Virus record (IMG/VR): IMGVR_UViG_3300029571_000009
Location: 1 to 64,000 of that record
Strand: one strand, 5' to 3'
DNA from: a virus
DNA: 64,000 bases
In this document: one piece after another, positions 6,337 through 27,105 of the stretch
Numbering within the stretch: position 1 is the stretch's first letter
Layout: each line of letters starts with the position of its first letter
Notes under the pieces: model-generated
The model's input: the letters and a program-made list of their open reading frames with translations, nothing else
Database searches by the model: none
Told to the model about the DNA's origin: nothing
Translations under genes and position numbers: made by a program

Positions 6337-6957
6337 TTACATATTGTCTATTTCTAACCACCTAACAATTGGCTCAGATGTGCTACCTTTTTCCCACACG
6401 AACCATGCATGGCACATTGTAGTCGCCCACTTCTTTCCCGTTTTTGGATCTTTCTCTAATCCACTATTCCAAGTTGCCATTCTATTCCTGAACACATATA
6501 TGTACTTAGGTGGATATTTTTCAAATAATTCTTTTCTTTTTGCGCCCTCAAGAAATTGAATTTTAAGAAACATTGCCATCTGACCATTATCTGTTAATAA
6601 ATCCATTCCTTTTTCTACAAATTCTTTTGCAAGTGAATATGGTGGATTGGTTATGATGCCTTCGTATTTTTTATCTGTTTCATATGTAAGAAAATTAGCA
6701 ACAATTGTGTTAGGATATCCTCTATCGACTAAATCAAGTCCTGTAATTTCTCTTTTATTCTTATAAAATTCATTTATTGCATTAGCAATATGACCACCAC
6801 CTACACACGGTTCTAATATTGTCTGTGCAAAAAAATCATATTTTGAAAGCAGCATTTTTACTGCTTCAGGATTTGTCGCATAGTAGTCATTTTCTACTCT
6901 TTCATTTTCTGGATTACCACCAGCCAATTTAGCACCTGCTAATACTTTTTTCTCCAT
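6337..6957 (-). CDS. N6-adenine DNA methyltransferase (orphan)
   Basis: AdoMet motif I EPCVGGGHIANAI followed by catalytic motif IV ITNPPYS. Confidence 0.7.
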   Translation of the reverse strand: MEKKVLAGAKLAGGNPENERVENDYYATNPEAVKMLLSKYDFFAQTILEPCVGGGHIANAINEFYKNKREITGLDLVDRGYPNTIVANFLTYETDKKYEGIITNPPYSLAKEFVEKGMDLLTDNGQMAMFLKIQFLEGAKRKELFEKYPPKYIYVFRNRMATWNSGLEKDPKTGKKWATTMCHAWFVWEKGSTSEPIVRWLEIDNM

Positions 6958-7145
6958 TTTGTGTTACCAGAAAGCTCATATGATTTACAGTAGCTACACT
7001 TTACATCCTTTCTGATATTTATTCTCTTATTAATTGGGATTCCCATAACCGAATAGCTTAGATATGATTAAAAATTCCCTATGAAAGATTGGTTTTAAGT
7101 GAAATCACTTCATCATTTCTTTCAGTTTTTTATTCTTATATTCTC

Positions 7146-8315
7146 CTATCCGTTGTGTTTTAATAAATACTCCCTCGAAACATTTTTAAAACTTTTTTGC
7201 CCTGAAATATCTCTGTATACAAATCCCTCTCTCTTAACCTTTGGATTTAATTCACTATATCCATCAGCTTCAAGTTTCATCTCTTCCATAGTCTTAGGTA
7301 ACTCATAAGCCGTATCAATAATTGGCACACTTGTTAATCCATGGCTCTTACAGAAATCAGCCATTTCTACAGTTCCCAGTCTTGTACCATCAATAATCAG
7401 ATTGAATACAAATAACTTATTCTCCGTAAATTTATATGGATTTCCCTGAACCGAGCCAACTCCTTCACCTTGTAACACAACTCTGTTATAGTCATTCTCT
7501 GTTGCAAACTGCGTAAGAATCTTTTCAATGTCATATTTATCAGCCAATTCCCAATAAATATTTGACTCGTGATAACAAGCCTGTTCTCTATCAGCCTGCC
7601 TTACATTTCTACTGCATACGATAAAATCAAATTTGTTCTTGCCCTTCTTCAATCTATCAACTGCAAATGTGCAGCTTGTACCATCGCATTTCTCAGTCTT
7701 AATCCACTTTTCTGTACTCTGAAGATAAAATGGTGCATTCTCAATTCTTGTCTCATCTGTTTTGACAATCCAATCTGGAAACTTCTTTGGATTATCTTTC
7801 TTGCGACCAAACAATAGAAACATAATCTTACGACCAATGCTGTATCTCATAATCCTTCTTACAATTGGGTTAGCGAATAACTTTGGTCTACGCTTTGCCA
7901 TTGACTTATATTTAGCATTTGGATCAATCTTATTAGTCTTTCTTGCTGCATCCTCTTCTGAAGCATATGTAATCTTCAAAGCTTCTGTAACATCATCACC
8001 AATATTTCTATCCTGTAATTCTGGGAAAAGTGATAATGGTAAGGCTAATCCCTGGCTAATTACTTTGAACTTGCCAAGTTTCATAGTCTTAACTTTGAAT
8101 TTCTTATTTGCCAAAAATGCGAATCTCTCATCTGTTTCAGGACACTTGCTGTCAATTTCGATATAAACAGCCATATCTCCTACATTAAACTCGCCTTTCT
8201 TAGCGATGCAAACCCATCCTAAAACTCCAATGAGTTCAATATTATCAGCTCCTTCAATCGGTCTGATCCACTCAATTTTTTCTACATGTGCTAATGCTCT
8301 CTCTTTGTTCTCCAA
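7146..8315 (-). CDS. ATP-dependent RNA ligase, Rnl5/DraRnl-like (N-terminal OB domain plus adenylyltransferase)
   Basis: nucleotidyltransferase motif I KCDGTS, motif III VLQGEGVG, motif IV REGFVYRD; N-terminal tRNA-binding-like OB segment IEGADNIELIGVLGWVCIAKKGEF. Confidence 0.7.
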   Translation of the reverse strand: MENKERALAHVEKIEWIRPIEGADNIELIGVLGWVCIAKKGEFNVGDMAVYIEIDSKCPETDERFAFLANKKFKVKTMKLGKFKVISQGLALPLSLFPELQDRNIGDDVTEALKITYASEEDAARKTNKIDPNAKYKSMAKRRPKLFANPIVRRIMRYSIGRKIMFLLFGRKKDNPKKFPDWIVKTDETRIENAPFYLQSTEKWIKTEKCDGTSCTFAVDRLKKGKNKFDFIVCSRNVRQADREQACYHESNIYWELADKYDIEKILTQFATENDYNRVVLQGEGVGSVQGNPYKFTENKLFVFNLIIDGTRLGTVEMADFCKSHGLTSVPIIDTAYELPKTMEEMKLEADGYSELNPKVKREGFVYRDISGQKSFKNVSREYLLKHNG

Positions 8316-8383
8316 GTTCCTCTTACCTTAGTAAGTAGTGCGCACTTTATCCTATAGGAACTTTTCTATTTTTCCTTTCTTAT

Positions 8384-9088
8384 TTAATCTTCTAATTTAT
8401 TACCTTTAGCTTCATTACAAAGCTTACACATTGTTTGATAGTTACTAATATCATCAATACCACCTTTTGAACGTGGTAAAATATGATCTTTTGTCATTAA
8501 AATTTCATCACCATTATCATCAACTGCATACAGATTTAGATGATATGTTTTATCCTGCAAATGTCTTTCTTTTGCAAAATATTTGCCTTCAATTCCACAA
8601 AATACACACTTACAACCTTTTGTGAAAAATGTCTGGTATCTTTGGCTATTACCTTTTATTAAATCTCCATCGAAATCAACCTTTGCATTTCTCTTATCTT
8701 TTTCAAATAAAACATTTTTCACTTTATTTCTAACTTCATCAATAGAATATACTTCCTTGCGAATTAAGTCCTCATGCTTTGATTTTGATTTTTTTAGTTT
8801 TGGTTCACAAAACTGCTTATTCAATAAAGTATTGTAGACATCTTCGATGTTTAAAACATCAATCAAATCTTTTACCGTTCTGATGTTGTTAGGAATATAA
8901 TCAGAAAGTAAATGTCTATTCCAAACAATCTTAAAAATTTCTGTATCCAAATTTGGTGATAATGGATTATTATTCTTGGGAAAACTCGTATTTAACAAAT
9001 CTTCAATAGTTTCATATTTGTCTAATAACTCCTTATCATTAAAACGATAATGAAATTTAAGACCTTTAAAAAATTTCTTTTTGCTCAT
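8384..9088 (-). CDS. HNH endonuclease (free-standing, homing-type)
   Basis: C-terminal HNH motif KDHILPRSKGGIDDISNYQTMCKLCNEAKGNK plus upstream CxxC pair CKCVFCG. Confidence 0.75.
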   Translation of the reverse strand: MSKKKFFKGLKFHYRFNDKELLDKYETIEDLLNTSFPKNNNPLSPNLDTEIFKIVWNRHLLSDYIPNNIRTVKDLIDVLNIEDVYNTLLNKQFCEPKLKKSKSKHEDLIRKEVYSIDEVRNKVKNVLFEKDKRNAKVDFDGDLIKGNSQRYQTFFTKGCKCVFCGIEGKYFAKERHLQDKTYHLNLYAVDDNGDEILMTKDHILPRSKGGIDDISNYQTMCKLCNEAKGNKLED

Positions 9089-9137
9089 AGTGACATCTCC
9101 TTTAAAATTTTATTGTCACTTATATATTCTCTCTTTT

Positions 9138-9153
9138 ATTTGGAAATCGTGAG
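9138..9153 (-). promoter_or_regulatory. copy of conserved intergenic motif (TTTGGAAATCGTGAGC), upstream of the HNH gene
   Basis: motif match in the 9089-9194 intergenic space. Confidence 0.3.
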
Positions 9154-9194
9154 CAGAAATGCTCTAAGATAAAATCATTTGAAATGCTTCTTTC

Positions 9195-9419
9195 TTATTT
9201 CTCATATAAAGCTTTCTGAAATTGTTTTCTAAATTTCTTACAAGCTGATTCATTTTGACTATCTGTTAATACTCCATGTATATAACAATACTGAATTGAA
9301 TATAATAACTTTTGTAATCTCTCAGCGTCTTTACTGAGAGTACACCCTTGTTTATTCACATACTTTTCCAAATTATCAAATAACGGATCAAAATTACTCA
9401 TATCTACAACTTTACCCAT
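9195..9419 (-). CDS. hypothetical protein
   Basis: 74 aa ORF. Confidence 0.4.
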   Translation of the reverse strand: MGKVVDMSNFDPLFDNLEKYVNKQGCTLSKDAERLQKLLYSIQYCYIHGVLTDSQNESACKKFRKQFQKALYEK

Positions 9420-9423
9420 ATTC

Positions 9424-9720
9424 TTATTCCCCCATCTGATCTACAATACTTTGTAACTTGTCAATATACATCTGTGCATATTTTTTATGTGATAACTGTT
9501 TAATATTAGCAGGTACAAAAGCTAACTTTGCTTCACCAAAAACATCATTATTTGAATAAACTTTCATAAACTGGCACATAGTTTCAGCATCAACCCGATC
9601 TAAATCTAGCTGAAAACAAATTACATCGCCCTTCTGTGGATGCAGTTTTCTAACCTTAATAAGTGTCTGTTTAAATAACTTCTTTTTCTGTCTCTTGTTC
9701 AATTTCTCACCTACTTTCAC
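9424..9720 (-). CDS. hypothetical protein
   Basis: 98 aa ORF. Confidence 0.45.
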   Translation of the reverse strand: MKVGEKLNKRQKKKLFKQTLIKVRKLHPQKGDVICFQLDLDRVDAETMCQFMKVYSNNDVFGEAKLAFVPANIKQLSHKKYAQMYIDKLQSIVDQMGE

Positions 9721-9914
9721 AACCGAATGAATCGTGGTTTTCCTACTTTATTCTTGCAGCACAGGGTTTGCATATATATACCTTTATTTTTTAAATCGTG
9801 TTTTAGATATAATATTTTTAATTTTACAGATATTACACTCTACCAAAACACATGATACTCTTTGTTTAAAATTATTTTTATAATATATTTTTCCTAAATC
9901 TTCAATTATATTAA

Positions 9915-10442
9915 TCATTCCATATATAACTCCTCAAATACAATTTGTTTAGGTAATAATTTATAGCACCAATAAGCACTCATAAAAGTGATTTTATTTT
10001 GAATAACACCATTATTTAAAAATTTCATTCTCTTGTTAAAAGATAATATTTGTAATTCTTTATCTTTAAACAAATGATATGGAGCTGCATCATTCCACCA
10101 AGTATTGGGTGCAATAAGCGCAAATGGTTTGCCAAAACTTAATGCTCTTTCAAAGATTTTTCTTTTATTAGTAAATGGTGGATTAGACACAATACAATCC
10201 CAGTTCTCATCAGGTTCATATGTATAGAAGTCTTGTCCATTATCTATATGAGTAGCGATTACTTTGTGACCTGCTTCTCTAATTTGTTTAACAAATTCAC
10301 TATTTTCCATGTCAAATGGACACCAAACCGTTGCTTCTTTTGGTATATATTTTACTATCGGTTTAACACCGTAATTTGGTGTCATACATTCGTCATTGTT
10401 TCCTTTGCTATATAATACTTCTTGACTATTAATCTTTGTCAT
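9915..10442 (-). CDS. small phage-type N6-adenine DNA methyltransferase
   Basis: catalytic motif SNPPF with upstream AdoMet-binding-like region; 175 aa, consistent with small phage Dam-like enzymes. Confidence 0.6.
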   Translation of the reverse strand: MTKINSQEVLYSKGNNDECMTPNYGVKPIVKYIPKEATVWCPFDMENSEFVKQIREAGHKVIATHIDNGQDFYTYEPDENWDCIVSNPPFTNKRKIFERALSFGKPFALIAPNTWWNDAAPYHLFKDKELQILSFNKRMKFLNNGVIQNKITFMSAYWCYKLLPKQIVFEELYME

Positions 10443-10590: not shown

Positions 10591-11421
10591 TTAATAATTT
10601 GTGATTAATACCTCACAATCGGCACTCTTGTCCTTTTTCTGATAATTGCAGTTGCTATAATCATGCTTTAAATAATGAACTATGTATTTATCTTTCCATT
10701 TATCAAGTAATGGATTGTCATATTTGAGATTATTACTTAATGCAAACTTAACACCTTTATCATTCAACATATCAAGAGTCTCTAGTAATTTATTCTCCAT
10801 TTCTTCTGTCCAGCCACCGTTTTCATTGTATGTAGCAACAGAATTGAAATATGGTGGATCTGCATAAACAAAATCGCCTTCCGTAAAATCGGAAAAATCA
10901 AATCTCTCAAATGGAATATTTAAGAAACTACAGTCTATTTCATTTAGCCGCTTATGAAAATCTATAAATTTTTGTCTAAGAGTGGGATTAAAACTTGACC
11001 TATCTTTACCAAAAGGCATATTGTATTCACCTTTGGAATTGAATCTGATTTGATTATTGAACGCATAACATAAAAGCGTATAGAATTTAATTGGGTCTTT
11101 AATACCTGTGTTATATTCTTCTCTAAACAGTAAATATCCTTCTTTGTTTTCTTTAGTTAATCCATACTTATTAATATATGAATCAATCTTATGTAATACT
11201 TCTTCAATATTTGAACCTTGTAAATATCTTAGAAAACCAACTACCTGTTCACATATATCATTGTAGATAATGTGATCAGCCTTTACATTAATACCAACAT
11301 TAAAACCTCCACCAAATAAATCCACGAAAGTATTTATCTTATCTGGAAACATCGGTATAATGATTGGTAGTAACTTATACTTGCCACCTACATAATTAAG
11401 TGGACTCTTTATATTACTCAA
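10591..11421 (-). CDS. DNA adenine methyltransferase, D12 (Dam) class
   Basis: NYVGGKYKLL, DLFGGG and DPPY motifs in D12-class order. Confidence 0.8.
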   Translation of the reverse strand: MSNIKSPLNYVGGKYKLLPIIIPMFPDKINTFVDLFGGGFNVGINVKADHIIYNDICEQVVGFLRYLQGSNIEEVLHKIDSYINKYGLTKENKEGYLLFREEYNTGIKDPIKFYTLLCYAFNNQIRFNSKGEYNMPFGKDRSSFNPTLRQKFIDFHKRLNEIDCSFLNIPFERFDFSDFTEGDFVYADPPYFNSVATYNENGGWTEEMENKLLETLDMLNDKGVKFALSNNLKYDNPLLDKWKDKYIVHYLKHDYSNCNYQKKDKSADCEVLITNY

Positions 11422-11594: not shown

Positions 11595-12101
11595 TTAATA
11601 TGGATTGACTTTAATGATTTCTTTTCCAACCTTTTCAGCATACTTAACACAATTTGCAGTACCACCTTTTGTGCCATCCCAAACCGCAATAACTTTATCT
11701 GCCAAATCAACCATATATTCATTTCTTTTCTGCATTAGCCAAGGCTTATATTCTTCATCAGATACCAACTTCACTGTATCTGCTTTTGAAAGAATATCGT
11801 TATATTGGTCAATACTTTCCTTAATCCATTTACAAGAATGATTCTTACGAGGAATTGCACAATGTAATTTAATGTCATAACCTTCGTCTTTGAGTTCTAA
11901 TACTGCCAATGCAAATACTGTATCAACTCCAAGAGCCATTCCTGTAATCGCTTCTGTACAATTATTCTCTTTTAGAATTGATTTAAACTGTTTTTTTAAG
12001 TTCTGCCAACGTAGATCAGATAAGTTGTAACCATATAATTTACTTGGTCTGTGACCTGTTACACATATTTTCATATTTTGTCCTTTCACGGTTGGATTCA
12101 C
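11595..12101 (-). CDS. SLOG-superfamily protein, YpsA/DUF1273-like (predicted nucleotide-binding)
   Basis: N-terminal ICVTGHRP motif and Rossmann-like GxALGVD pattern; sits next to the NAD module. Confidence 0.45.
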   Translation of the reverse strand: MNPTVKGQNMKICVTGHRPSKLYGYNLSDLRWQNLKKQFKSILKENNCTEAITGMALGVDTVFALAVLELKDEGYDIKLHCAIPRKNHSCKWIKESIDQYNDILSKADTVKLVSDEEYKPWLMQKRNEYMVDLADKVIAVWDGTKGGTANCVKYAEKVGKEIIKVNPY

Positions 12102-12388: not shown

Positions 12389-12423
12389 AATCCTTCCTTC
12401 CTAATGAAATATCGCATTCATTT

Positions 12424-12777: not shown

Positions 12778-13521
12778 TTAGAAATTTGGATAGAATGAAG
12801 GCATAAGCTGAAGCTTGAATAAATTCTTCTCATGCATTGAATCAATCTTCGCTTTTACATCCTCATCATTAATCTCTCCTGTTCTGATATACCTATCAAG
12901 AGTGTCATAAGTGAATCCAAGGTTGTCCTCGTCAGTCTTTCCACAAAGACCGTCAGTAGGTGTCTTATCTACTAACTCAGATGGAAGTCCTAATTCACGA
13001 CCAATCGCCTTAACTTCCGAAACTGTGAGCTGCGATAGTGGACTGAAATCACCTGCTGCGTCTCCATATCTGGTAGCATATCCTACCCAATCCTCTGAAA
13101 GATTACATGTATTTGCAACACGACCATTGATTGTCTGAGATACTGCATAAAGTGTAGCCATTCTGATACGAGCAGGAAGGTTTGTTGTTGTTTGTATAGA
13201 TAAATTTTCGTCTAATGATGTTTTAATTTCATATTCAGCAACATTAACAATTGTTCCAATTGGAATGATCGTTCGAGGAATATCTAAAAAGTTGCATAGC
13301 ATATGACTATATTCGATATCAGATTGTCTTCCCTGCGGCATAAGTACACCAAACACTCTATCTTTCCCAAGAGCTTCTACACACAGAGCAGCTACAACGC
13401 TTGAGTCCTTACCTCCTGAAATTCCAACTACTGCATTACAATCCTTACCATTCTTATCAAACCAATCTCTGATCCACTGTACTACTTCGTTCTTTACTGT
13501 CTTTACATCAAAATTACTCAT
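12778..13521 (-). CDS. nadE: NH3-dependent NAD+ synthetase
   Basis: PP-loop signature GISGGKDSS; 247 aa, typical NadE size and layout. Confidence 0.8.
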   Translation of the reverse strand: MSNFDVKTVKNEVVQWIRDWFDKNGKDCNAVVGISGGKDSSVVAALCVEALGKDRVFGVLMPQGRQSDIEYSHMLCNFLDIPRTIIPIGTIVNVAEYEIKTSLDENLSIQTTTNLPARIRMATLYAVSQTINGRVANTCNLSEDWVGYATRYGDAAGDFSPLSQLTVSEVKAIGRELGLPSELVDKTPTDGLCGKTDEDNLGFTYDTLDRYIRTGEINDEDVKAKIDSMHEKNLFKLQLMPSFYPNF

Positions 13522-13960
13522 GTTTTATCTCTCCTTTTTCAATCTTCTCAATCAATGTAAGTAATTCATTGTATACCTGAATTAAACCGCCTCTGTCATC
13601 AATATAAACATTTGCATATATTTTTCTACCTGCAAAAGCTACAGATGCGTCACAATTGATACCTCTATACTTGATATTGTTGTCCTTTAGATACTGCTCA
13701 ATCATTCCGTATTTATCTTCACCATTCCCAGTAAAAATAATTATCTCTGAATAATTCTCCCATCTTTGTAAAAGATTAATGACATTCTCATATGTCCTAC
13801 CCTTCTTATGGAAATCATAAATCGTATCATCGAAATCTACACAAAAGATAAGCCTGCCATATTTCTTAAATTCTTCCTCTAATCTATTGTAGGAATTATT
13901 GGCTTGAAGATAAAAATCCATATTACTTTCCTCCATACATTCTGTTCCTAATGTCCTCAA
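13514..13960 (-). CDS. HAD-superfamily phosphatase (possible nucleotidase)
   Basis: HAD motif I CVDFDDTIYD. Confidence 0.5.
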   Translation of the reverse strand: MRTLGTECMEESNMDFYLQANNSYNRLEEEFKKYGRLIFCVDFDDTIYDFHKKGRTYENVINLLQRWENYSEIIIFTGNGEDKYGMIEQYLKDNNIKYRGINCDASVAFAGRKIYANVYIDDRGGLIQVYNELLTLIEKIEKGEIKHE

Positions 13961-15383
13961 ATGTATCCTCTCTTACTAATTCTCCATTCTTGAATACAGT
14001 TGTAAGCAAACTATCTTCATTCATATCGAGTAACTGATCCTGACACTTCAGTTCTCCATCTTCTTCATATACTTTGCAACACCCCTTATGAGATTTCTTT
14101 AAATGGCTTGTATCAGTCTTCGGATCTTTGAAGATCATAAGCCTCTTACCATCAATAACTCCATAAGTAGCCTTCATTGCAATTCCAAAAGTATCTCTTG
14201 TAACAACAATCATCTTTCCATTCTCGACAATAGCTGTAAAACAAAATGCACCTACACCATAAGCAATGTTATTAGCTGCAAATCCACGCCTTTCTAACTC
14301 TCTCCAAATAGTCTCTACATTAGAAAGAGTACATCCGTCACCATAGATAATACCAATATGAGGATCTAACACCTTATAACCCTTACCGTTGATAGAACCA
14401 CCAAAGATATCCCATAATCTTTCTACTGTCTTAACTGAAATCTCTACAATATCACCACTGTCAGGACGAACAAGCAACTTGCCATTGTGATTCATAATCT
14501 CTTCCTTACACTGTGGAAGAATATTGTTTACCATATTCCAATAATCATAGGTATCTGAAACCATACTAAATGAAGTATTTGGATATAATTCTGTAAGTAA
14601 TCTCTTAACGAATGTAATCTCATCACCATCAATTGAGTAATTTGCTCCCATTACGGAATGCTCTGTTGATACTGCACCAATTCCAATACCACTATTCTTA
14701 CAATCAGCATTGTAATATTTATCAATATATGTAATGGCAGGAATAGTTGAAGTCTTATTGAAAGATAATAACCATGAAGCAGAACATCTTGTAGCTTCGT
14801 CCATACAAGACATACCTCTCATACCAAAATCGGCACAAGCCATATTGCCAGGTAAACCGTCTGTTGTTTTGTTATACCAATAATCTGCAATCTCACGATA
14901 CATATGACCAATAGTTGCGTGACAGCAAGGCTTCCATAATTCAACCTGAAGGATACACTCAATCCACTGAACAAGCCATGCAAATTTGTCATCTGTATTG
15001 GTAATTTCAATACAAGGAACTCCCATTGGTACAAGTGTTCCCTCTGGTAAAGCTCTAATTTTAAGTGGCAGATAACCAAGTCTGTGAAGTTCTACAATCT
15101 TCTCTAAGTCGTAATTATCTCTGCCAATCTGCACATCCATTGAATCTGTATAAAGAGATAACATCTCATTCTCTGATAATTCAAAGAAATTCTTCTGGAA
15201 ATATCCCATTAGATATTCCTTAATAAAAGCCTGTAATCCGAAGAAAACCATATGATTCTGATTTTCCAACATTGATTTACGAGGCACCCAATATGAGACT
15301 AACTTAGTTAATCCCTTTGGGTACATACGATCATGACACTGCTTATAAGTATCACTAAGTAATAAAGCCATTGTGTTATCCAT
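13923..15383 (-). CDS. nicotinamide phosphoribosyltransferase-like enzyme (NadV/NAMPT family; alternatively a Namat-type nicotinamide ADP-ribose transferase)
   Basis: about 486 aa; N-terminus MDNTMALLLSDTYKQCHDRMYP is typical of the NAMPT family; start moved to the internal ATG at 15383, which has a GGAGG RBS and avoids overlapping the upstream gene. Confidence 0.75.
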   Translation of the reverse strand: MDNTMALLLSDTYKQCHDRMYPKGLTKLVSYWVPRKSMLENQNHMVFFGLQAFIKEYLMGYFQKNFFELSENEMLSLYTDSMDVQIGRDNYDLEKIVELHRLGYLPLKIRALPEGTLVPMGVPCIEITNTDDKFAWLVQWIECILQVELWKPCCHATIGHMYREIADYWYNKTTDGLPGNMACADFGMRGMSCMDEATRCSASWLLSFNKTSTIPAITYIDKYYNADCKNSGIGIGAVSTEHSVMGANYSIDGDEITFVKRLLTELYPNTSFSMVSDTYDYWNMVNNILPQCKEEIMNHNGKLLVRPDSGDIVEISVKTVERLWDIFGGSINGKGYKVLDPHIGIIYGDGCTLSNVETIWRELERRGFAANNIAYGVGAFCFTAIVENGKMIVVTRDTFGIAMKATYGVIDGKRLMIFKDPKTDTSHLKKSHKGCCKVYEEDGELKCQDQLLDMNEDSLLTTVFKNGELVREDTFEDIRNRMYGGK

Positions 15384-15387
15384 AATT

Positions 15388-16224
15388 TTAAACCTCCATA
15401 ACTGTAATCTTTTCATGACTACCATTAAACAAACTGTTTGTAGTAAATAATCTGTTCACTGTATTATTCTCCAAAGACTTGATCAACGTTCCTTTTTCTT
15501 TATCAAGAATTGAATTCTCTGTATGTGTTGCATACGCATAAATCTCAGTTACACCATGTTTCTTTAATTCTTCTGCGCTATAATAAAGTGAACCGCCATA
15601 TGCGATAATATCATCAATCATTAACACAGCTTTGTCCTTCAAATCAATACCATTTGTTATAATGTCTAATCCAAGGATTTTGCCAGTCTTCCAATCTCTT
15701 TTCTTTTCACCATAACAATATGGTAACTCAGGGAATAAATCTGAATATCTCTTAGCTGCACCTGCGTCTGGGAAATAAAGTACAAGATTTCTCATGCCAA
15801 TCTTTGAAATAGCTTTATCAACATACTCTTTTGGATTTTCTTTTACACAATTATTGAGTAATGCAGTAGAAACATCGCTATGAGCATCTAAAACATAAAC
15901 TGATGAAAATCCTAACCAATTGATAAAATCGCAAAAATACTTCAATGTGAATACTTCATCATCATTTTTTACTCTATCCATTCGTGCATTAGGAATATAT
16001 GGAAGATATAAATAATAATCCACATTAGTAAAAAATCTTTCAAGATGTTTCCTTACTAACATCAGATAAAACATCTCATCGTTACTCTCATAAATCCATT
16101 CAATCCAAATGCAAGGAGAGCCATCATAAGTGTCTTCCTCAATGTTGTTTGTATCAATATTTACTCTTGGTGTTCCATCTGGGAACTTGTTGATTGCTAC
16201 AATTTCACCATTAATTTTAATCAT
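15388..16224 (-). CDS. ribose-phosphate pyrophosphokinase-like (Prs; alternatively an Adps-type ADP-ribose pyrophosphokinase)
   Basis: FPDGTPRVNI (Prs N-terminal motif) and PRTase-type DDIIAYGGSL; 5 nt upstream of the NAMPT-like gene. Confidence 0.7.
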   Translation of the reverse strand: MIKINGEIVAINKFPDGTPRVNIDTNNIEEDTYDGSPCIWIEWIYESNDEMFYLMLVRKHLERFFTNVDYYLYLPYIPNARMDRVKNDDEVFTLKYFCDFINWLGFSSVYVLDAHSDVSTALLNNCVKENPKEYVDKAISKIGMRNLVLYFPDAGAAKRYSDLFPELPYCYGEKKRDWKTGKILGLDIITNGIDLKDKAVLMIDDIIAYGGSLYYSAEELKKHGVTEIYAYATHTENSILDKEKGTLIKSLENNTVNRLFTTNSLFNGSHEKITVMEV

Positions 16225-16227
16225 ATT

Positions 16228-16740
16228 CTACTCTCCAATCACGTTAATCTGACACATCTTCATTGTCTCTAATGCAGCCTTATGCGTCTCAGGTGTAACA
16301 CCTGCACAGCAACTTGCATCCACTGTAATATCAATATTAGGATAATTTGCTCTAATCATAAGTGCATTTGACACTACACAAATGTCTGTACAAAGACCAC
16401 AAACTTCTACTTCTGTAAAATCAAAATCATCCCAATGTGTCCATCCGAAAGTCGGCTTATCAATAACTACGTCATTCTCAATATCAAAATCTAACTTATC
16501 TGAAATCTGCCATCCGATTGTATTTTTTACACAATGGACAACTGGGAGATGCTTTCCTTCATATGTTTCTAAATAATTATTTGGGTGTGTATCTCTTGTA
16601 AAAATTACACTATCACCATTTTCTCTGTACTCCTTGATTTTCTTTGCCACATTAAGTACAATACTCTGTGCTTCATTTGTGCCAAGTGAGCCATCAATAA
16701 AGTCATTCTGCATATCAATTACAATTAGTGTTTTACTCAT
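16228..16740 (-). CDS. pncA: nicotinamidase / isochorismatase-family hydrolase
   Basis: LIVIDMQNDF motif and catalytic Cys context EVCGLCTDICV. Confidence 0.65.
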   Translation of the reverse strand: MSKTLIVIDMQNDFIDGSLGTNEAQSIVLNVAKKIKEYRENGDSVIFTRDTHPNNYLETYEGKHLPVVHCVKNTIGWQISDKLDFDIENDVVIDKPTFGWTHWDDFDFTEVEVCGLCTDICVVSNALMIRANYPNIDITVDASCCAGVTPETHKAALETMKMCQINVIGE

Positions 16741-17398: not shown

Positions 17399-17740
17399 TT
17401 ATTCATATGCTGTCATTTCTATAAAATTCTCATTCAAATCAAATACAATAGCTGCTTGACAATAAGTACCACCAATAATTAATTCTTTTACATTAGGATT
17501 CCATGTTTTCTCTTCGTACTTGATTTTCCATTTATCTAACCAATTCTTCCATTGAATGTAATCTGATACACATTTTTGACTGCCAAGAATTTGCATCACA
17601 TCAGACTTTCTTACAAAGCCCATTTCAGATGGTAGCTTGGACAATTCTTTTCGTAATACTGCTTTATCAATTAATTGTCCCATATGGTTATTCTCCTTCT
17701 CTACGAGTATATGGTTCACAAAACTCCAACATTTCTTCAT
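17399..17740 (-). CDS. hypothetical protein
   Basis: 113 aa ORF. Confidence 0.45.
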   Translation of the reverse strand: MKKCWSFVNHILVEKENNHMGQLIDKAVLRKELSKLPSEMGFVRKSDVMQILGSQKCVSDYIQWKNWLDKWKIKYEEKTWNPNVKELIIGGTYCQAAIVFDLNENFIEMTAYE

Positions 17741-18227
17741 TTATATGTCCTTCTTTAATAAGCTGTTCATACAAATCAATCCAACCTTGTGCAGATAGGT
17801 TATGATAATATCCAATACAGTTTCTCCAATGTTTACAATCAAATGTCGATGGATAAGTTTTAATTTCAATGTATGTTCTACACTTTTCATATAGATTCTT
17901 AGAATAACAATTTGACGCACTTTTAACATAACTATTACATTCAATAAAAGCTTCTGTTGGATCATACTTACTTCTCATGTCTGTTAATATTCTGTCATAT
18001 AATTCTGTCTTAGCGATATATATGCAATGGATTAGAAAATAGATATCATCATCTTCATATGAAGAACTTGTATAGAATATTTGATTGTGATTGACTTGTT
18101 TGTGAGTATCTTGTGGTGTAAACGTTGCTAAAACCTTTTCGATTTCTTCTTTGTGTTCCAAATAATTATCAATAGGATCTCTGATTAAATTACACTCAGC
18201 TCTATATCCTCGTTTATAATCTGACAT
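17688..18227 (-). CDS. hypothetical protein, paralog of 2210..2608
   Basis: shared N-terminal YKRGxRAxCNLIRDPxDNYxEHK block. Confidence 0.55.
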   Translation of the reverse strand: MSDYKRGYRAECNLIRDPIDNYLEHKEEIEKVLATFTPQDTHKQVNHNQIFYTSSSYEDDDIYFLIHCIYIAKTELYDRILTDMRSKYDPTEAFIECNSYVKSASNCYSKNLYEKCRTYIEIKTYPSTFDCKHWRNCIGYYHNLSAQGWIDLYEQLIKEGHINEEMLEFCEPYTRREGE

Positions 18228-19524: not shown

Positions 19525-20349
19525 CTACTTCACATATAAACTTTCATACACAATACTATCATTTGATTTACCAATAGTACGCTTAAAGCTGCTATTACCA
19601 CTAAGTAAATATTCGTGTCGTGTATATACATCTTCTGGAACATTCCATGTATTGTCTATATCCCCACTCTTACCATCGAATGATAAAGCATACTTGCAAG
19701 GTAAACTCCTCAAATAATTCCAAAACTTCTCATAATCAATTGTTCCATAATACATACCCTTTGTATTGGCATAAGGTGGATCAAGATACAAGAAGTCGTT
19801 ATCTGTTGGGTTAATATCTTCATAAGAACAACTGATAAACTCTACATTATTTTTCTTCAGCATATGACTCCACTCAAAAATAATCTTTTCAAAAGTTTCA
19901 GGAATAATACCATTTCTTGTTACATGAAAAGAATTATTAAATTCACCATCACGATTATATCTTGGCATACCATTAGTAGTAGTTCTCATAATGAACATAA
20001 AATCTAATGGATTATGTTCTTTATTGTATCGTTCTCTTACACTTGCAAAATATTCTTTTTTACGTTGTTTGTCATCATCAACATTTAACTCATTCCAGAG
20101 TTTCTTATAATAAAAATAAACTTCTAATGGATTATTGATAATCTCTTTCCATAAATCAATTAACCCGCTATTCAAATCACTACATACATAATGATTAACT
20201 TTGATGTCGCTATCTAATAATCTCCTTAATACAGACGCTCCACCACAAAACGGTTCATAATATGTATCAATTTCTTTTGGAAAGAATGTCAGTATCTTTT
20301 CTGCCTGACTTCTTTTACTTCCACTCCATTTAATTACTGGTTCGTACAT
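19525..20349 (-). CDS. DNA adenine methyltransferase, D12 (Dam) class
   Basis: IKWSGSKRS, EPFCGGASV and LDPPYAN motifs. Confidence 0.8.
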   Translation of the reverse strand: MYEPVIKWSGSKRSQAEKILTFFPKEIDTYYEPFCGGASVLRRLLDSDIKVNHYVCSDLNSGLIDLWKEIINNPLEVYFYYKKLWNELNVDDDKQRKKEYFASVRERYNKEHNPLDFMFIMRTTTNGMPRYNRDGEFNNSFHVTRNGIIPETFEKIIFEWSHMLKKNNVEFISCSYEDINPTDNDFLYLDPPYANTKGMYYGTIDYEKFWNYLRSLPCKYALSFDGKSGDIDNTWNVPEDVYTRHEYLLSGNSSFKRTIGKSNDSIVYESLYVK

Positions 20350-20660: not shown

Positions 20661-20858
20661 TTATTTGAATTCTATCTTATTTCTTTTTAATACCTTAACT
20701 GCCTTGTCATAATCAGTTTCAGCTACTTTGATGTTTTTCATCTTGGTAGGCTTTGGTTTTATCCAATAGCGACATTCTGTAATATCTTCGTCATACCACA
20801 TCAAACCACCTTCACAATATTTATGATACTGGCAGTCATTGTTACCACATCTACTCAT
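20661..20858 (-). CDS. hypothetical Cys-rich protein
   Basis: 65 aa, CGNNDCQYHKYC...C. Confidence 0.4.
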   Translation of the reverse strand: MSRCGNNDCQYHKYCEGGLMWYDEDITECRYWIKPKPTKMKNIKVAETDYDKAVKVLKRNKIEFK

Positions 20859-21705
20859 TTATATATTCTCTCACTCTCTTATTTCCAACCTCAAAAATTT
20901 CCTTATCTTTCTCAAAACATATGTAATTCCTATTTGTATTCATAGCTGCAATCGCAGTTGTACAACTTCCTGCACACGAATCAAGAACCAAATCACCTGG
21001 ATTTGTGTATGTCTTGATAAAATACTCACACGCTTCAACAGGCTTTTGGCACTGATGTAAGCTACTTTTCTGAGTATCCCATTTAAACTGCAAAACATCT
21101 CTTGGATATCTTTGTGTACTACCACCACCTGAAATACCAATCTTTGTAGCACCATAACAGTTACCATCTGTTGTATGTTTTGTATAAGAATGAACAGGCG
21201 TATGTCCTTCTGTCATTTGTGGATTGTAAGTAGGGAGTTTCTTATAGAAAATCAAGACATTTTCGTGTGCCTTCATAGGCATTTTCTTAGCGTTTAGATG
21301 ACCAGTTGCTTTGGTCTTTTCGATAATCCATTCATAGCGATATAGCTTTTCATTACTACAAGCGAGCCTCTTATCAAATGGTGACTGCGCCCATAATGCA
21401 ATACAACCATTATCTTTGATAATTCGATTGTAGTGAGTCCATAAACCATCTTTTTTGTTCTCATAAAACCAATCTCTTGTATATTCAAGACTGCTATCTA
21501 TTACTTGAGCTAACTCGAACAAATCTGTTTCATAAAAATATTGACCTGATAATTCCACATAATCATTTAACGGCATTTCACATTCCCAAGAATTATTAGT
21601 CGTATTATAAGGCAGATCCGTGAAGATGAAATCGACTGACTTATCATCAATCTTTTTCATACCTTCAAGACAGTCTTCGTTGTATATTTTGTTAATCTCT
21701 AACAT
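20851..21705 (-). CDS. DNA methyltransferase, N4/N6 beta class
   Basis: motif IV FTDLPY near the N-terminus and motif I VLDSCAGSCTTAIAA near the C-terminus. Confidence 0.7.
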   Translation of the reverse strand: MLEINKIYNEDCLEGMKKIDDKSVDFIFTDLPYNTTNNSWECEMPLNDYVELSGQYFYETDLFELAQVIDSSLEYTRDWFYENKKDGLWTHYNRIIKDNGCIALWAQSPFDKRLACSNEKLYRYEWIIEKTKATGHLNAKKMPMKAHENVLIFYKKLPTYNPQMTEGHTPVHSYTKHTTDGNCYGATKIGISGGGSTQRYPRDVLQFKWDTQKSSLHQCQKPVEACEYFIKTYTNPGDLVLDSCAGSCTTAIAAMNTNRNYICFEKDKEIFEVGNKRVREYINE

Positions 21706-22807: not shown

Positions 22808-23068
22808 TTATTCTCCTTTACTATATCCAGTCTCTTCAAGGAATTTATCAAATTCCTCTTTTTTCATACAGTTTGGATAATACATATCTACCACCATATC
22901 AAACGGCTTTAAATAATTATCCAATACATCTTCAGCATTCTCTTTTGCTTCCTGCATTTTCATATTGATATAATCTTCTCTCGTCATATTCCATGCTGTA
23001 GGACAATCCGTGACACTCGAAAATCTACAATATAATCCATTCGGTTGTTTTGATATAAATCCTGCCAT
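22808..23068 (-). CDS. hypothetical protein
   Basis: 86 aa ORF. Confidence 0.4.
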   Translation of the reverse strand: MAGFISKQPNGLYCRFSSVTDCPTAWNMTREDYINMKMQEAKENAEDVLDNYLKPFDMVVDMYYPNCMKKEEFDKFLEETGYSKGE

Positions 23069-23069
23069 A

Positions 23070-23753
23070 TTATTCTCCTAATTCTTTTAGTGCATTAACA
23101 AGTTCAGCGAGTCTTGGATTCTCAGGATGCTCCTTTGCCATCTTTTCATATAAAGCAATATTATTCATCTTTTCAATCTCAGACTTTAGCTCCTCCTCAA
23201 TAGAGGCTTTTTGCTTTGCAATTTCTTTCTGACGATTTTCCTCGTCAGTTCTTGCATTGTATGCGTTCATATTAACTACACCAACAACCTGAGCTGTCAC
23301 ACCTTTTCCATACTCTTCGACTGTCTTAATTTCTTTTAAAATTCCAAGAACTCTATTGCCTTTCCCTCTTGCATTTACAACCAGATACAACGGATGATTG
23401 GTATCATACTTAAGAATTTCATTAATATCTTTATCATATAAAGCAAATCCATAATCTTTCTTATTGTAATCATCTACCAAATTTACAATCGCCACTTTAC
23501 TAAATCCTGTCATTTTATTATCCTCACTTTCATCTCTAATAATATTCAATTCACTTCTACTGAACCAATATAATCCATTGGAACTTGCTGCATTATACAT
23601 TCCGTCAATCTGAACAGCTATTGATCCGTTTGTAGTTTTAATAACTTGTCCATATAGCCCAACAATGTTTTCTTCTCTGTATTTTCTTTTATCAGTATAT
23701 GTAACTTTTACTCGTTGATTTTGATATTCTTCATAATCGTAAATCTTGCTCAT
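23070..23753 (-). CDS. hypothetical protein with C-terminal coiled coil
   Basis: 227 aa ORF. Confidence 0.5.
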   Translation of the reverse strand: MSKIYDYEEYQNQRVKVTYTDKRKYREENIVGLYGQVIKTTNGSIAVQIDGMYNAASSNGLYWFSRSELNIIRDESEDNKMTGFSKVAIVNLVDDYNKKDYGFALYDKDINEILKYDTNHPLYLVVNARGKGNRVLGILKEIKTVEEYGKGVTAQVVGVVNMNAYNARTDEENRQKEIAKQKASIEEELKSEIEKMNNIALYEKMAKEHPENPRLAELVNALKELGE

Positions 23754-23767
23754 CGCATCACCTCCTG

Positions 23768-24004
23768 TTAATATATTCTCGTATCATTTACAATTTTTTG
23801 ACAATTTTCAATTACCCTACAAATCAATCTCTTTCCATTATCACTAAAATAATCATTATTTTTCTGTTGATTATAGTAATCTTCAAGTTTATTGTTAGCA
23901 GATTTTAACCTTCGAGATATATTAGCATAGTCGCACTTATTATCACATTCCGATGAATATTCTTTATTGTATCTTAATTTACATTCCATACATGGACTGT
24001 ACAT
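23768..24004 (-). CDS. hypothetical Cys-rich protein
   Basis: 78 aa, CMECK...CDNKCDY. Confidence 0.4.
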   Translation of the reverse strand: MYSPCMECKLRYNKEYSSECDNKCDYANISRRLKSANNKLEDYYNQQKNNDYFSDNGKRLICRVIENCQKIVNDTRIY

Positions 24005-24022
24005 TTTGCACCTCCTGTTAAT

Positions 24023-24217
24023 TTATTCTCCTAATCCATATCTTCTTAACCATTCTTTTTTGCTTAATGTGGTTACACCACGTTTCTTTTGTTGCTTCCA
24101 TACCTTGATAGCATATTCTTTTGTCATTCCTGGCACTGGATAATGTATTACGGATTTTGAGATTGTATATGGTTTTCCTATAGAAGCCATCTTCAACAAA
24201 TCTAATAAGTTAGTCAT
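24023..24217 (-). CDS. hypothetical protein
   Basis: 64 aa ORF. Confidence 0.35.
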   Translation of the reverse strand: MTNLLDLLKMASIGKPYTISKSVIHYPVPGMTKEYAIKVWKQQKKRGVTTLSKKEWLRRYGLGE

Positions 24218-24229
24218 AAATATAGCCTC

Positions 24230-24559
24230 CTAATCCTCAATATAATTTATTTCTTCCAAAATTGAACTTCCTATAACATATAGTTTCTTTGAAATTATCC
24301 TTGTTACTCTTTTAAGGAATTCTTTATGAAGTTCATTCTCTTGCTCATACACAACCATTTTTTGATTCCCATTTCTATGACAGCAAGCATATGTTCCTTC
24401 CTCATACTCAGCTCCATAATAATAAAAATACAGATTGTATTTATGATTATGTTTACTAAATAACCACGGATGAAGCGTTGCAATAGTTATATAGTTATTT
24501 CCGATTTTTATTCTAAAATCATAATGTGACTTATTTTGTACGATTTTCAAAAACTTCAC
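24230..24559 (-). CDS. hypothetical protein
   Basis: 109 aa ORF. Confidence 0.45.
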   Translation of the reverse strand: MKFLKIVQNKSHYDFRIKIGNNYITIATLHPWLFSKHNHKYNLYFYYYGAEYEEGTYACCHRNGNQKMVVYEQENELHKEFLKRVTRIISKKLYVIGSSILEEINYIED

Positions 24560-24826
24560 CTCTTTTCATATTAAGAGTACATTCATTTCTATACTCTATG
24601 AGAGCATACTTGTTCCTTATCATTACATGTTAGGATCGAGGTTTATTCCAAGGCATTATATTCTCAAATGAGTTTCAGCCTATACGCTCATCGGTTGACT
24701 GACTTGTTAATTTCAGCCTTCACCTTTACTTTTTCACCATCTCAGGTTTTCAGTTCGTTTTACCTCATTTATATATTCTCTGCTAGAGCAGAAGAAATCT
24801 ATGATTCTTGTTCTTCTACAACCTTA

Positions 24827-25330
24827 TTATTTTATGTCATCTCTTTCATAAAAACATAAAAGCTCCGCAGCATGATTCCTTTGAATAGTAAGATTATCTA
24901 CTTCCTCCTTTAGTTCTTTATTCTTTTTTTCAAGTTCGGCTATTCTATTTCTCAACACATCTTCTGTTAAAAACTTCTGAGTTCCAATTTGCTTATAATC
25001 AAACGGAACAGATTTAACAGAATAATTGCTGATATAATCTGTTGTCCCATCGGTATATGTAATAGTTGGCTCAAAAAATCCACGATTCTTACAATTGTCA
25101 CAATGGCAGATAGATGAAATATACCCAATCTTGCCATCATTGTTTTCTACAAAATCACCTTCATGAAATTGAATGTCTGTTATATTATTCTCTTTAGGAA
25201 TAACTGGCTCTCTAAATATAAGTTTTAAATATCCTTCACCTACATTTTCTTCACCGATAAACGTATAACCACGATCTTCGTATTTTTTAACTGTTTCTTT
25301 TGCTTTGCATATCTTTACGCCAACAGTCAT
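24827..25330 (-). CDS. hypothetical protein with C-terminal coiled coil
   Basis: 167 aa ORF. Confidence 0.5.
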   Translation of the reverse strand: MTVGVKICKAKETVKKYEDRGYTFIGEENVGEGYLKLIFREPVIPKENNITDIQFHEGDFVENNDGKIGYISSICHCDNCKNRGFFEPTITYTDGTTDYISNYSVKSVPFDYKQIGTQKFLTEDVLRNRIAELEKKNKELKEEVDNLTIQRNHAAELLCFYERDDIK

Positions 25331-25398
25331 CTATTCATTCTCCTTTTTCTTTGTTTTTGTATATATTTATTCTCTGAAAATCAAAAAGAAATTCCGCT

Positions 25399-26124
25399 TT
25401 ACTTGGAATTTTTATTTTTATACATAAACAGCTTTTCTCTTCGAAAATCCTTAATGTTATTACATTCTCTATTGCTGTCAAATGTAATCTTAACTTGTTT
25501 CTCCCAAATGCAATCAAAGTCATCTGGCATTGAATATTCACTTATAATGACAACATTATCTTTAGACATTTCTCTACACCATTGATAAAATTGTTCATAT
25601 GGAAATTCACCTGTTTTGTATTTGGTTGTATTTTTATACGGTGGATCACAATATATTACATACCCATGTAAATTAGAATAATCTAAAAATGAAGCTGTTC
25701 TAAAATGGATATCTTTAAGATTTGGAGCTTGCTTCATGCATGATTTGTAAGAATAAATATCTCCCCGATGTTTAGCATCATCACGCTTTGCATAACCACC
25801 AAACCACTTTGCTCCAAAACTAAGTTCATATCCTATATACCCTGTTATAAAATCAGAATATTTGTCAGGATTATTTTTTACATCAATATAAAATTCTTTC
25901 GATACTTCTTTTGGTGGTTCAATTCCTTGCTGCAAACCAATAAGTACAGAAATTACATATTTATCAATATCGCTTCCTATCTTATTGTCACATTCAATTT
26001 TATCAATAATATTTGCACCACCTACGAATGGTTCTAAATAACCATTGCATCCCTTGTCTATATAATTCTGTATAATCGGTACAATTTGTTTTGATAACCG
26101 ATTTTTGCTTCCCATGTAAATCAT
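25399..26124 (-). CDS. DNA adenine methyltransferase, D12 (Dam) class
   Basis: MIYMGSKNRL, EPFVGGAN and CDPPYKNT motifs. Confidence 0.8.
   Translation of the reverse strand: MIYMGSKNRLSKQIVPIIQNYIDKGCNGYLEPFVGGANIIDKIECDNKIGSDIDKYVISVLIGLQQGIEPPKEVSKEFYIDVKNNPDKYSDFITGYIGYELSFGAKWFGGYAKRDDAKHRGDIYSYKSCMKQAPNLKDIHFRTASFLDYSNLHGYVIYCDPPYKNTTKYKTGEFPYEQFYQWCREMSKDNVVIISEYSMPDDFDCIWEKQVKITFDSNRECNNIKDFRREKLFMYKNKNSK
25408..25428 (-). promoter_or_regulatory. variant copy of conserved intergenic motif (TTGGAATTTTTATTTTT)
   Basis: motif-like sequence between the start of 24827..25330 and the stop of the Dam gene. Confidence 0.25.
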
Positions 26125-26181
26125 TATGTATCAGGAGTAAACGCTGCGTTTTCGGTATACCAAACCTCTTACTCCTTTCTT

Positions 26182-27105
26182 TTATTCTCTTAACCCACTC
26201 AAAATCCATTCAATAGTAGGTTCATTCCATCCATTGCCCATCAAACTACATCTTTTTGAGTATGATAACCAACGATTGTTAAGCTGAATTTTTGTAAAAT
26301 TATCAGGCAATCCCTGTAATCTTTCATATTCAACTTCTGTAAGTTTTCGTGGTCTACCACTATCTAATACTTTCTTTTCGTGATATCCACCATTGATACA
26401 AGTCAATGTGCAGCACTTAAAATCTGGATTATAAATTCTTCTATTCATTTCCATAGAATTAACTTTTAACTCTGCGCATACACGTTTGTTCATATCCAAG
26501 ATTTCAAAATCTTTCTTATAGAAATATTTCTCATCTACACTATTCTCCATAATATCTTTCAAAACTAATGGAGATTCATCAGGTAATTTACCTAATGGTA
26601 TGTTTGTCCAATAATATCTTTCACGATTTTGAGACGAAAATCTTCCTGAATCAATCAAAATAGGTTCTACACCAATACATTCTGTCATTGTCTTCAGATC
26701 TTCGTCACAACTTGGTATTACATTCTCAAACATGAAATATTTGGGCTGAATTGCCCTAAGACACTCAATTGCTTTAAAGAAAATTCCTGACTTACCATCA
26801 AGACCATTATTGACCTCTTTGCTTTCAATTCGTACTCTTGAAATTGACTGGCAACAAGTTCCTGCCAACAGTAAATCAAATCCTTTGAACTGTTCAAAAT
26901 CCGCTTCATATAAATCGCCATGATGTACCACAAACGGAAAATGGTACTGAGAAACTGCTATGGCTTCTGGCAAAATTTCATATGTATGATATTCTCTTAT
27001 AGGTATTCCGAGCTGCTGTAACGCATACAATCCTGTTTCAACGCCACCACATAAACTTAACACTCGTAGCCCCTTGAGAATTATTTTTTCATTATTCTCT
27101 GTCAA
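26182..27105 (-). CDS. DNA (cytosine-5) methyltransferase with variant motif IV
   Basis: motif I VLSLCGGVETG, motif IV AGTCCQSIS (canonical GPPCQ), motif VI FMFENV, motif X MGNGW. Confidence 0.7.
   Translation of the reverse strand: MTENNEKIILKGLRVLSLCGGVETGLYALQQLGIPIREYHTYEILPEAIAVSQYHFPFVVHHGDLYEADFEQFKGFDLLLAGTCCQSISRVRIESKEVNNGLDGKSGIFFKAIECLRAIQPKYFMFENVIPSCDEDLKTMTECIGVEPILIDSGRFSSQNRERYYWTNIPLGKLPDESPLVLKDIMENSVDEKYFYKKDFEILDMNKRVCAELKVNSMEMNRRIYNPDFKCCTLTCINGGYHEKKVLDSGRPRKLTEVEYERLQGLPDNFTKIQLNNRWLSYSKRCSLMGNGWNEPTIEWILSGLRE

Follow-up and report, generated by a model that had tools for sequence, protein, structure and literature searches.

Eight solitary DNA methyltransferase genes in a 21-kb block of a gut phage: a probable anti-restriction strategy

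Why would a phage carry eight DNA methyltransferase (MTase) genes within 21 kb, and no restriction gene to go with them? The question is raised by positions 1 to 64,000 of the IMG/VR virus record IMGVR_UViG_3300029571_000009, the 64-kb stretch of DNA analysed here and called the window below. An earlier note, made from the sequence of this window alone, had reported such a cluster and read it as an extreme case of self-methylation directed against restriction. We analysed the eight genes, their neighbours and their relatives in metagenomic data. The MTase genes are there, and we found no restriction partner for them. We consider it likely that these orphan enzymes methylate the DNA of the phage itself as a protection against restriction, and that the avoidance of restriction sites complements this protection.

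The window is AT-rich (~31% G+C) and is transcribed leftward almost throughout its first ~54 kb (~1-54 kb). All eight open reading frames (ORFs) lie on the minus strand at the coordinates of Table 1, and we refer to each of them by its first position. They make up 8 of the 35 genes, and 29% of the bases, of a 20.8-kb block in which the genes are packed tightly on one strand and NAD+ (nicotinamide adenine dinucleotide) genes resembling the NARP1 pathway, as well as an RNA ligase gene, are interspersed. The count of eight was upheld by the profile searches. All eight proteins matched PHROG families labelled DNA methyltransferase, and six of them (10591, 18733, 19525, 20851, 25399, and 26182) exceeded the curated Pfam cut-offs, whereas 6337 and 9915 stayed below threshold on their best family, Eco57I. 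The eight enzymes fall into five sequence groups.

Table 1. Features of the window, methyltransferases first (AdoMet, S-adenosylmethionine; TRD, target-recognition domain; aa, amino acids).
Feature	Coordinates	Strand	Evidence or remark
Mini gamma-class amino-MTase, 206 aa, probably a DNA N6-adenine MTase	6337..6957	-	NPPY, EPCVGGGH AdoMet motif, phrog_799
Mini gamma-class amino-MTase, 175 aa, distant paralogue of 6337	9915..10442	-	NPPF, phrog_799
T4-Dam-like D12 N6-adenine MTase, 276 aa, predicted target GATC	10591..11421	-	PF02086, TIGR00571, T4 Dam alignment
D12-class N6-adenine MTase, 248 aa	18733..19479	-	PF02086, DPPY, EPMVGGA
Dam-family D12 N6-adenine MTase, 274 aa, divergent TRD	19525..20349	-	PF02086, TIGR00571
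Beta-class N6/N4 MTase, 284 aa, variant motif DLPY	20851..21705	-	PF01555, phrog_67
D12-class N6-adenine MTase, 241 aa, 44%-identical paralogue of 18733	25399..26124	-	PF02086
Short C5-cytosine MTase, 307 aa, N-terminal half DNMT3-like	26182..27105	-	PF00145, motif IV TCCQ
RNA ligase, 389 aa, beside MTase 6337	7146..8315	-	PHA02142 OB-fold 1.9e-22, RNA_ligase 1e-18
HNH-motif protein, 234 aa	8384..9088	-	C-terminal ~35 residues match HNH/HNH_5; N-terminal ~190 aa without match
YpsA-SLOG protein	11595-12101
NAD+ synthesis/reconstitution cluster: NadE, small HAD-like, NAMPT-family, PRPS-like, nicotinamidase	12778..16740	-	Pfam
Two DUF262/GmrSD_N-type proteins	29616-31052, 35260-36060	-	PADLOC NsnA profile, E ~1e-17
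PemK/MazF toxin	33192-33542
Opposite-strand helix-turn-helix protein	33669-33890	+
Tyrosine integrases	33905-35152, 38165-39187		Catalytic regions 30% identical
RadC-like JAB protein	37632-38150

Such a density is unusual. In gut phages, about two thirds of the genomes lack MTases, and among the carriers 72% encode a single one (PMC10477858). A literature search for phages carrying six to nine MTases returned irrelevant papers only. A cluster of eight MTase genes is far beyond chance.

Could some of these enzymes be the modification half of a restriction-modification (R-M) system? We scanned all remaining ORFs of the block, and ORFs outside it, with Pfam, PHROG, and PADLOC and found no restriction endonuclease, a negative that has to be read with the great divergence of these enzymes in mind, since small uncharacterised ORFs could escape. 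The only match to restriction-type profiles was the generic HNH motif of the protein encoded next to the RNA ligase. The earlier note took this protein for a homing-type nuclease and the only nuclease nearby. The HNH motif is indeed present, but a homing endonuclease is not demonstrable. We found homologues of the protein in 17 related loci, and the surroundings of 10 of these are free of 9915-, 10591-, and 6337-type MTases. The gene belongs to the conserved backbone and is not a restriction partner, a role that we rejected because the gene does not co-vary with any MTase. The orphan status of the eight enzymes, as claimed in the note, was therefore borne out by the scans, by the lack of space between the genes (see below), and by the independence of the HNH gene.

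The same evidence bears on the idea that the MTases mark the DNA of the phage as self, while the HNH protein or the two DUF262/NsnA-like proteins degrade unmethylated DNA of the host or of competitors, so that the whole would form a dispersed, phage-borne system similar to R-M. The window does encode these three candidates. Yet, besides the lack of co-variation and of other restriction profiles, the two DUF262 proteins are encoded outside the block and show no recognisable nuclease domain in Pfam, PHROG, or PADLOC. We regard this idea as very improbable.

Solitary MTases can also arise by the decay of R-M systems, and this is the sole reason for considering that the eight genes might be functionless relics of complete systems that have lost their restriction genes. 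We found no support for it. The coding density of the block is 90% and its largest intergenic gap is 267 nucleotides, which leaves no room for a decayed restriction gene, and we rejected decayed R-M systems for this lack of space for pseudogenes. Furthermore, the catalytic motifs of the MTases are intact and conserved across many relatives, and identical proteins are found in dozens of independent metagenomes. That the genes are mere relics is extremely improbable.

Which modifications could these enzymes make? Four of them belong to the D12 class of N6-adenine MTases. They matched PF02086 well above its gathering cut-off of 22 bits, with 122 bits for 10591 (E 4.7e-35), 57 for 18733 (3.3e-15), 112.5 for 19525 (3.6e-32), and 43.2 for 25399 (5e-11). 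The AdoMet-binding motif I lies at residues ~33-45 in all of them (FGGG in 10591, VGGA in 18733, CGGA in 19525, and VGGA in 25399), and the catalytic DPPY follows on its C-terminal side, at residues 188, 176, 190, and 160, respectively. Both motifs are kept in relatives. The more specific dam profile TIGR00571 (cut-off 114.85 bits) was passed by 10591 (139.6 bits) and 19525 (128.7 bits), and not by 18733 or 25399.

The enzyme 10591 aligns with T4 Dam over its full length, including the TRD (residues 8-275 on 5-259, E 2e-43). The T4 Dam residues K11, R116, and P126, which contact GATC in the T4 Dam-DNA structures, align with K14, R126, and P136 of 10591. From this full-length alignment and these conserved equivalents, we predict that 10591 likely targets GATC. 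Among the eight enzymes, it is the only one for which the predicted target has some support. For 19525, only residues 3-196/211 align with DpnM, EcoDam, and T4 Dam, and its TRD is left unaligned; over its full length, it is 55-58% identical to the Dam enzymes of the Clostridioides difficile phage phiCD211 and of Geobacillus virus E3. The search with 18733 gave no relative in the PDB by sequence.

The earlier note saw 18733 and 25399 as close paralogs that had recently been duplicated and had diverged in specificity. This did not hold. The two proteins are merely 43.9% identical over 230 aa, and the other D12 pairs are 20-29% identical. We rejected a recent tandem duplication on the basis of this identity, and the relatives show cassette gain, loss, and replacement instead (see below).

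The two remaining enzymes above the Pfam cut-offs are of other classes, as the note had proposed. The beta-class enzyme 20851 matched PF01555 with 89.8 bits (E 3.2e-25, cut-off 26.7) and phrog_67 (9e-68). It is circularly permuted, with the catalytic tetrapeptide at residues ~30-33 preceding DSCAGSCT near residue 243. This tetrapeptide is DLPY rather than DPPY. Among 34 homologues, 24 have DLP[YF] and 9 have DPP[YF], and since the variant is conserved, 20851 is probably active. Its nearest solved structures are adenine MTases (M.MboIIA, DpnA, CcrM, and RsrI), which, together with the D of DLPY, makes N6-adenine more likely than N4-cytosine as its target.

The C5-cytosine enzyme 26182 matched PF00145 with 74.8 bits (E 1.1e-20, cut-off 22) and did not reach the cut-off of TIGR00675 (75 against 100.65 bits). 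In its motif IV, the usual PCQ is replaced by TCCQ, where the catalytic cysteine is retained and the proline has become a cysteine; motifs VI (FENV), VIII (QNRER), and X (GNGW) are present. The stretch GTCCQS is kept in 11 homologues with the other motifs intact. We do not read DLPY and CCQ as signs of decay, since homologues keep both variants, and this conservation of odd motifs (DLP[YF] and GTCCQS) argues for purifying selection. The protein is far more similar to the catalytic domains of the eukaryotic DNMT3A/B (E 4e-20, residues 12-174) than to M.HhaI (7e-5). Its short length suggests a small TRD. We considered its likeness to DNMT3 as a novelty and downgraded it, because DNMT3A is already a common label of phage genes in virome surveys (PMC11309003); that DNMT3 is of prokaryotic origin had been argued earlier (PMC3227630).

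The two mini MTases, 6337 and 9915, are the least certain members of the set. On Eco57I (PF07669) they scored 23.0 and 19.1 bits, under the cut-off of 25.3, although close homologues of 6337 carry precomputed matches to this family, and both matched the phrog_799 family of DNA methyltransferases (2e-60 and 5.5e-31). They are 29% identical to each other, and neither has a convincing sequence relative of known structure. We gathered 4,505 homologues of 6337 and 3,565 of 9915, nearly all of them unannotated metagenomic proteins, put both families in one alignment, and predicted both structures. Motif IV is NPPY at residue 104 of 6337 and NPPF at residue 87 of 9915, and the latter is kept in 14 of the 14 homologues of 9915 from related loci. 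In both proteins it follows motif I, within a class-I Rossmann MTase fold that is nearest to DNA N6-adenine MTases. The AlphaFold2 model of 9915 (mean local confidence pLDDT 87, global pTM 0.84) gave M.BseCI, the M subunit of the type I system StySJI, PacII, and CamA as its top Foldseek matches. In the models of 6337 and 9915, the catalytic core is followed only by a short beta extension at the C terminus, and no separate TRD is seen. We conclude that the two proteins are gamma-class amino-MTase cores without TRD, closest to DNA N6-adenine MTases. Hence, of the six N6-adenine MTases listed in the earlier note, the four D12 enzymes stand above the Pfam cut-offs, and the assignment of the two mini enzymes is probable but not certain.

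Two further ideas on the mini enzymes deserve attention. They might be N6-adenine or related amino-MTases acting on tRNA or rRNA, which would partner the adjacent RNA ligase in RNA repair or protection, and the DNA MTases would then number six. We find this unlikely. The other idea, which we put forward with much reserve, is that these TRD-less proteins of 175 and 206 aa are the smallest functional DNA adenine MTases, i.e., bare cores with little or no specificity, as in M.EcoGII, or with a specificity borrowed from a partner. If this were true, the mini enzymes would give a blanket protection by N6-methyladenine (m6A), and the six site-specific enzymes and the purging of palindromes would complete the cover. 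The family is uncharacterised, and gut metagenomes contain it in great abundance, with more than 3,500 and more than 4,500 homologues; such small adenine MTases without TRD could serve as tools.

Is the set of eight a fixed property of the lineage? We made a census of 88 loci, counting MTases up to 10 kb on either side of the 18733-type gene, and found from 1 to 7 MTase genes per locus. The 18733-type gene is the conserved anchor of the locus in relatives, around which the rest varies. The 25399-type gene is absent from L001 and L002 and present in L003-L006. The C5 slot holds differing alleles, with scores ranging from 33 to 717 bits. Other cargo of the block changes at these places as well: L002 has NAPRTase and NadD instead of the NAD+ genes of the window, a TnpB/IS605-type gene lies beside the C5 MTase in L002 (3421-4587) and L006 (1-999), and a gene for the poly-ADP-ribose glycohydrolase PARG is found between MTases in L003 (3167-3949) and L005 (3181-3963). 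At the same time, exact protein sequences of the block recur across dozens of independent metagenomes. On these sequence comparisons, the block appears as a hotspot of cassette turnover for counter-defence cargo. As a side observation on the anchor gene, the match to the 18733-type MTase is limited to residues 8-157 at ~10001-10720 of L073-L084, where a second fragment adjoins on the opposite strand; the gene may be disrupted or inverted in this subgroup of IMG/VR relatives.

If the lineage is exposed to restriction, one might expect traces of it in the composition of its DNA. We compared the tetramers of the window with Markov-corrected expectations and did the same for 78 related loci (~1.5 Mb). 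In the window, GGCC is absent where 29 occurrences were expected, CGCG is absent (14 expected), CCGG occurs 3 times (19 expected), and GGNCC does not occur. GATC was counted 81 times against 205 expected, an observed/expected ratio (O/E) of 0.40, and CTAG, ACGT, CATG, and GCGC have O/E of ~0.45-0.53. The eight lowest O/E among the 256 tetramers are all those of palindromes, and two other palindromes, TGCA and AGCT, are not depleted in the window. The relatives show the same trend, with 10 GGCC for 945 expected and O/E of 0.07 for CGCG, 0.29 for CCGG, and 0.48 for GATC. This avoidance of palindromes shows that the lineage is under strong restriction pressure, and avoidance is used besides the presumed methylation.

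To which phage does the block belong? A megablast search of the 21.5-kb block against GenBank phages gave no match. The exact 18733 protein was found in 71 blocks of a metagenome collection, on human-gut contigs of up to 436 kb, and its homologues are on more than 100 IMG/VR contigs, mostly of 90-186 kb. The only matches among genomes were Lachnoclostridium and Eubacteriales fragments assembled from metagenomes. On the left of the window, the protein used for extension was found only on contigs of ~1 kb. Beyond the right end, relatives encode a dCMP deaminase, an 812-aa protein of family PF05183, a Metallophos nuclease, HU, and an integrase; L089 (10329-14169) holds the deaminase together with the 812-aa protein, a YonO-like single-subunit RNA polymerase. 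L090 and L091 carry a RelA/SpoT-domain protein. The 812-aa protein is similar to RNA polymerases of the YonO type in Thomasclavelia phage TR-TP2, which by this gene is the closest cultured phage, in Enterocloster phages, in Clostridium phages c-st and D-1873, and in Bacillus phages SPbeta and phi3T; its identity is 29% to TR-TP2 (E 3e-66) and 23% to yonO of SPbeta (E 2e-8). Phage TR-TP2 has the same order of polymerase, HU, Metallophos exonuclease, lysis, terminase, and portal genes, plus a MazF-integrase pair. Its record has no annotated DNA MTase, and a tblastn search of our eight proteins against its first 50 kb found none. The window itself encodes PemK/MazF, two tyrosine integrases, RadC, DnaN, a ParB-like protein, and helix-turn-helix regulators. 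We conclude from these comparisons that the element is probably a large (~150-190 kb), temperate, SPbeta-like, YonO-bearing phage of human-gut Clostridia. Its affiliation with SPbeta rests on the YonO-like gene and on the synteny with TR-TP2, both read in relatives that share the right end of the window.

Some contigs carrying the MTases reach 0.3-1 Mb, above the size of a phage genome, and lengths so far in excess of 190 kb suggest that the element is integrated. Given its integrases and contigs of this length, the phage is probably temperate, so that its MTases might modify the chromosome of the host as well. Their main function might then be on the side of the lysogen: the prophage would methylate the host chromosome to reprogram its expression, or to equalise the methylomes of host and phage for the lysogen and its partners in DNA exchange, and the protection of virions would be secondary. 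Besides the long contigs, the integrases, PemK/MazF, and the regulators of the window are in line with this, and among gut phages the temperate ones carry MTases more often (PMC10477858). On the other hand, the genes share a long stretch of one transcriptional direction with replication and counter-defence genes, and are not in a moron-like position beside the integrase. The MTase of SPbeta is induced lytically (PMC8270828), regulation would hardly call for eight specificities, and the turnover of cassettes fits an arms race. A primary function in the lysogen is thus rather improbable.

The reading that we favour, i.e., self-methylation against restriction, builds on the identity of the genes, their intact and conserved motifs, the missing restriction partner, the variable complement, the avoidance of palindromes, and the phage affiliation. 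The activity of the enzymes on phage DNA, their targets, its timing, and its protective effect we infer. The region would be a counter-defence island of the phage. The eight solitary MTases would methylate the replicating phage DNA before packaging, seven of them probably making N6-methyladenine and one 5-methylcytosine. If each enzyme covers a different short motif, the progeny would bear a composite coat of methylation and would enter the next host protected in advance against a range of restriction systems of types I-III. Sites left unmethylated would be handled by avoidance, with GGCC, CGCG, and CCGG nearly gone and GATC halved. The set of MTases would have been assembled by horizontal gain, loss, and replacement of cassettes rather than by recent tandem duplication.

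We favour this reading because of the counter-defence context of the genes and because of a precedent: MtbP of SPbeta methylates GGCC prior to packaging and thereby protects the phage in the next infection (PMC8270828). The interpretation of the earlier note is accordingly retained as the best one, with the addition of three traits that it had missed, namely the temperate lifestyle, the purging of palindromes, and the enzymes without TRD.

Several points weigh against it. A heavily methylated phage would be exposed to type IV, i.e., methyl-dependent, enzymes. In the prophage state, the MTases could serve to modify the host chromosome instead. The two mini enzymes are below threshold in Pfam and have no TRD, and their resemblance to RNA m6A MTases is only slightly lower than that to DNA MTases. 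Finally, GATC is strongly avoided despite the presence of a predicted GATC Dam, and a protection by Dam is not evident from the sequence. This avoidance is not relaxed in loci that have the Dam gene (O/E 0.39, against 0.51 in those lacking it, p 0.02), a comparison which is uninformative on the activity of Dam since the loci are related and short (~20 kb each).

The genes that neighbour the MTases provide supporting context for a counter-defence island. The Pfam matches of the NAD+ cluster are NAD_synthase (1.9e-53), NAPRTase with NAMPT_N, Pribosyltran, and Isochorismatase. At 13923-16224, the NAMPT-like gene is directly followed by the PRPS-like gene. The NARP1 pathway consists of such an adjacent pair, the PRPS-like Adps and the NAMPT-like Namat (bioRxiv 10.1101/2024.02.11.579819; PMC13586617), and we liken the two by Pfam families and gene order. 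The RNA ligase is possibly a counter-defence gene for tRNA repair.

Other features of the window lie farther from the MTases. The stretch 33192-39187, with the toxin, the integrases, and the RadC-like protein, looks like a lysogeny or addiction module. At ~52800-55600, the coding strand switches from minus (genes up to ~54.5 kb) to plus (genes from 55.6 kb), the sign of both the AT and the GC skew is reversed, and there are few ORFs; an origin or a regulatory region may lie here. The plus-strand side past 55.6 kb encodes DUF3825, ParB-like, and DUF6551 proteins. Two minus-strand ORFs, at 2210-2608 and 17688-18227, share N-terminal regions of ~60 residues with 51% identity (E 6e-17), and neither matched any family.

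The value of the locus is that of an extreme and well-delimited natural case in an abundant, uncultured lineage of human-gut phages. It adds to this the turnover of cassettes, the co-location of NAD+ reconstitution and RNA repair genes, and the near-total purging of GGCC, CGCG, and CCGG. The block offers, in compact form, candidate MTases with new specificities and a test case for the division of labour between methylation and site avoidance across target sites. Public PacBio gut metagenomes probably already hold the data needed to read the methylome of the phage.

How does the locus compare with known systems? Like the Dam enzymes of phages T4 and P1, 10591 is an orphan phage enzyme, and it aligns end to end with the former. 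It differs from them in being one of eight enzymes and in residing in a genome depleted in GATC. The fold of the catalytic domain and the NPPY/F motif of 6337 and 9915 are those of M.TaqI and CamA, whose large C-terminal TRD (~170-300 aa) has no counterpart in the phage proteins.

At the level of whole phages, the SPbeta group (MtbP or M.SPbetaI, and the multispecific C5 MTases of phi3T and rho11s) shares with our element a solitary MTase in a large temperate phage of Firmicutes and a YonO-type RNA polymerase, the homologue of which adjoins the window in relatives. In SPbeta, however, a single multispecific C5 enzyme covers several sites, whereas here there are eight genes, mostly for adenine enzymes, that look monospecific. 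Moreover, its target GGCC is purged from the genome here instead of being methylated, and the identity between the YonO proteins is only ~23%. A smaller version of this equipment is found in cultured relatives: phiCD211/phiCDIF1296T and Geobacillus virus E3 are large temperate siphophages of Firmicutes (131-141 kb) with homologous orphan MTases. Phage phiCD211 has at least three MTases in 40 kb, among which are a Dam that is 55% identical to 19525, with a second MTase adjacent to it, and a mini MTase of 200 aa that is 31% identical to 6337. Yet, the three MTases of these phages are dispersed among replication genes, in contrast to the eight clustered ones described here, and no NAD+ pathway is embedded within the stretch examined.

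Among gut phages in general, the carriage of MTases is common, MTases are enriched in temperate phages, and a higher number of MTases goes along with denser methylation and more motifs (PMC10477858; PMC10711547). Eight MTases in one 21-kb block are far out in the tail of the distribution given above. The locus is an extreme example of a well-known anti-restriction strategy rather than a new kind of system.

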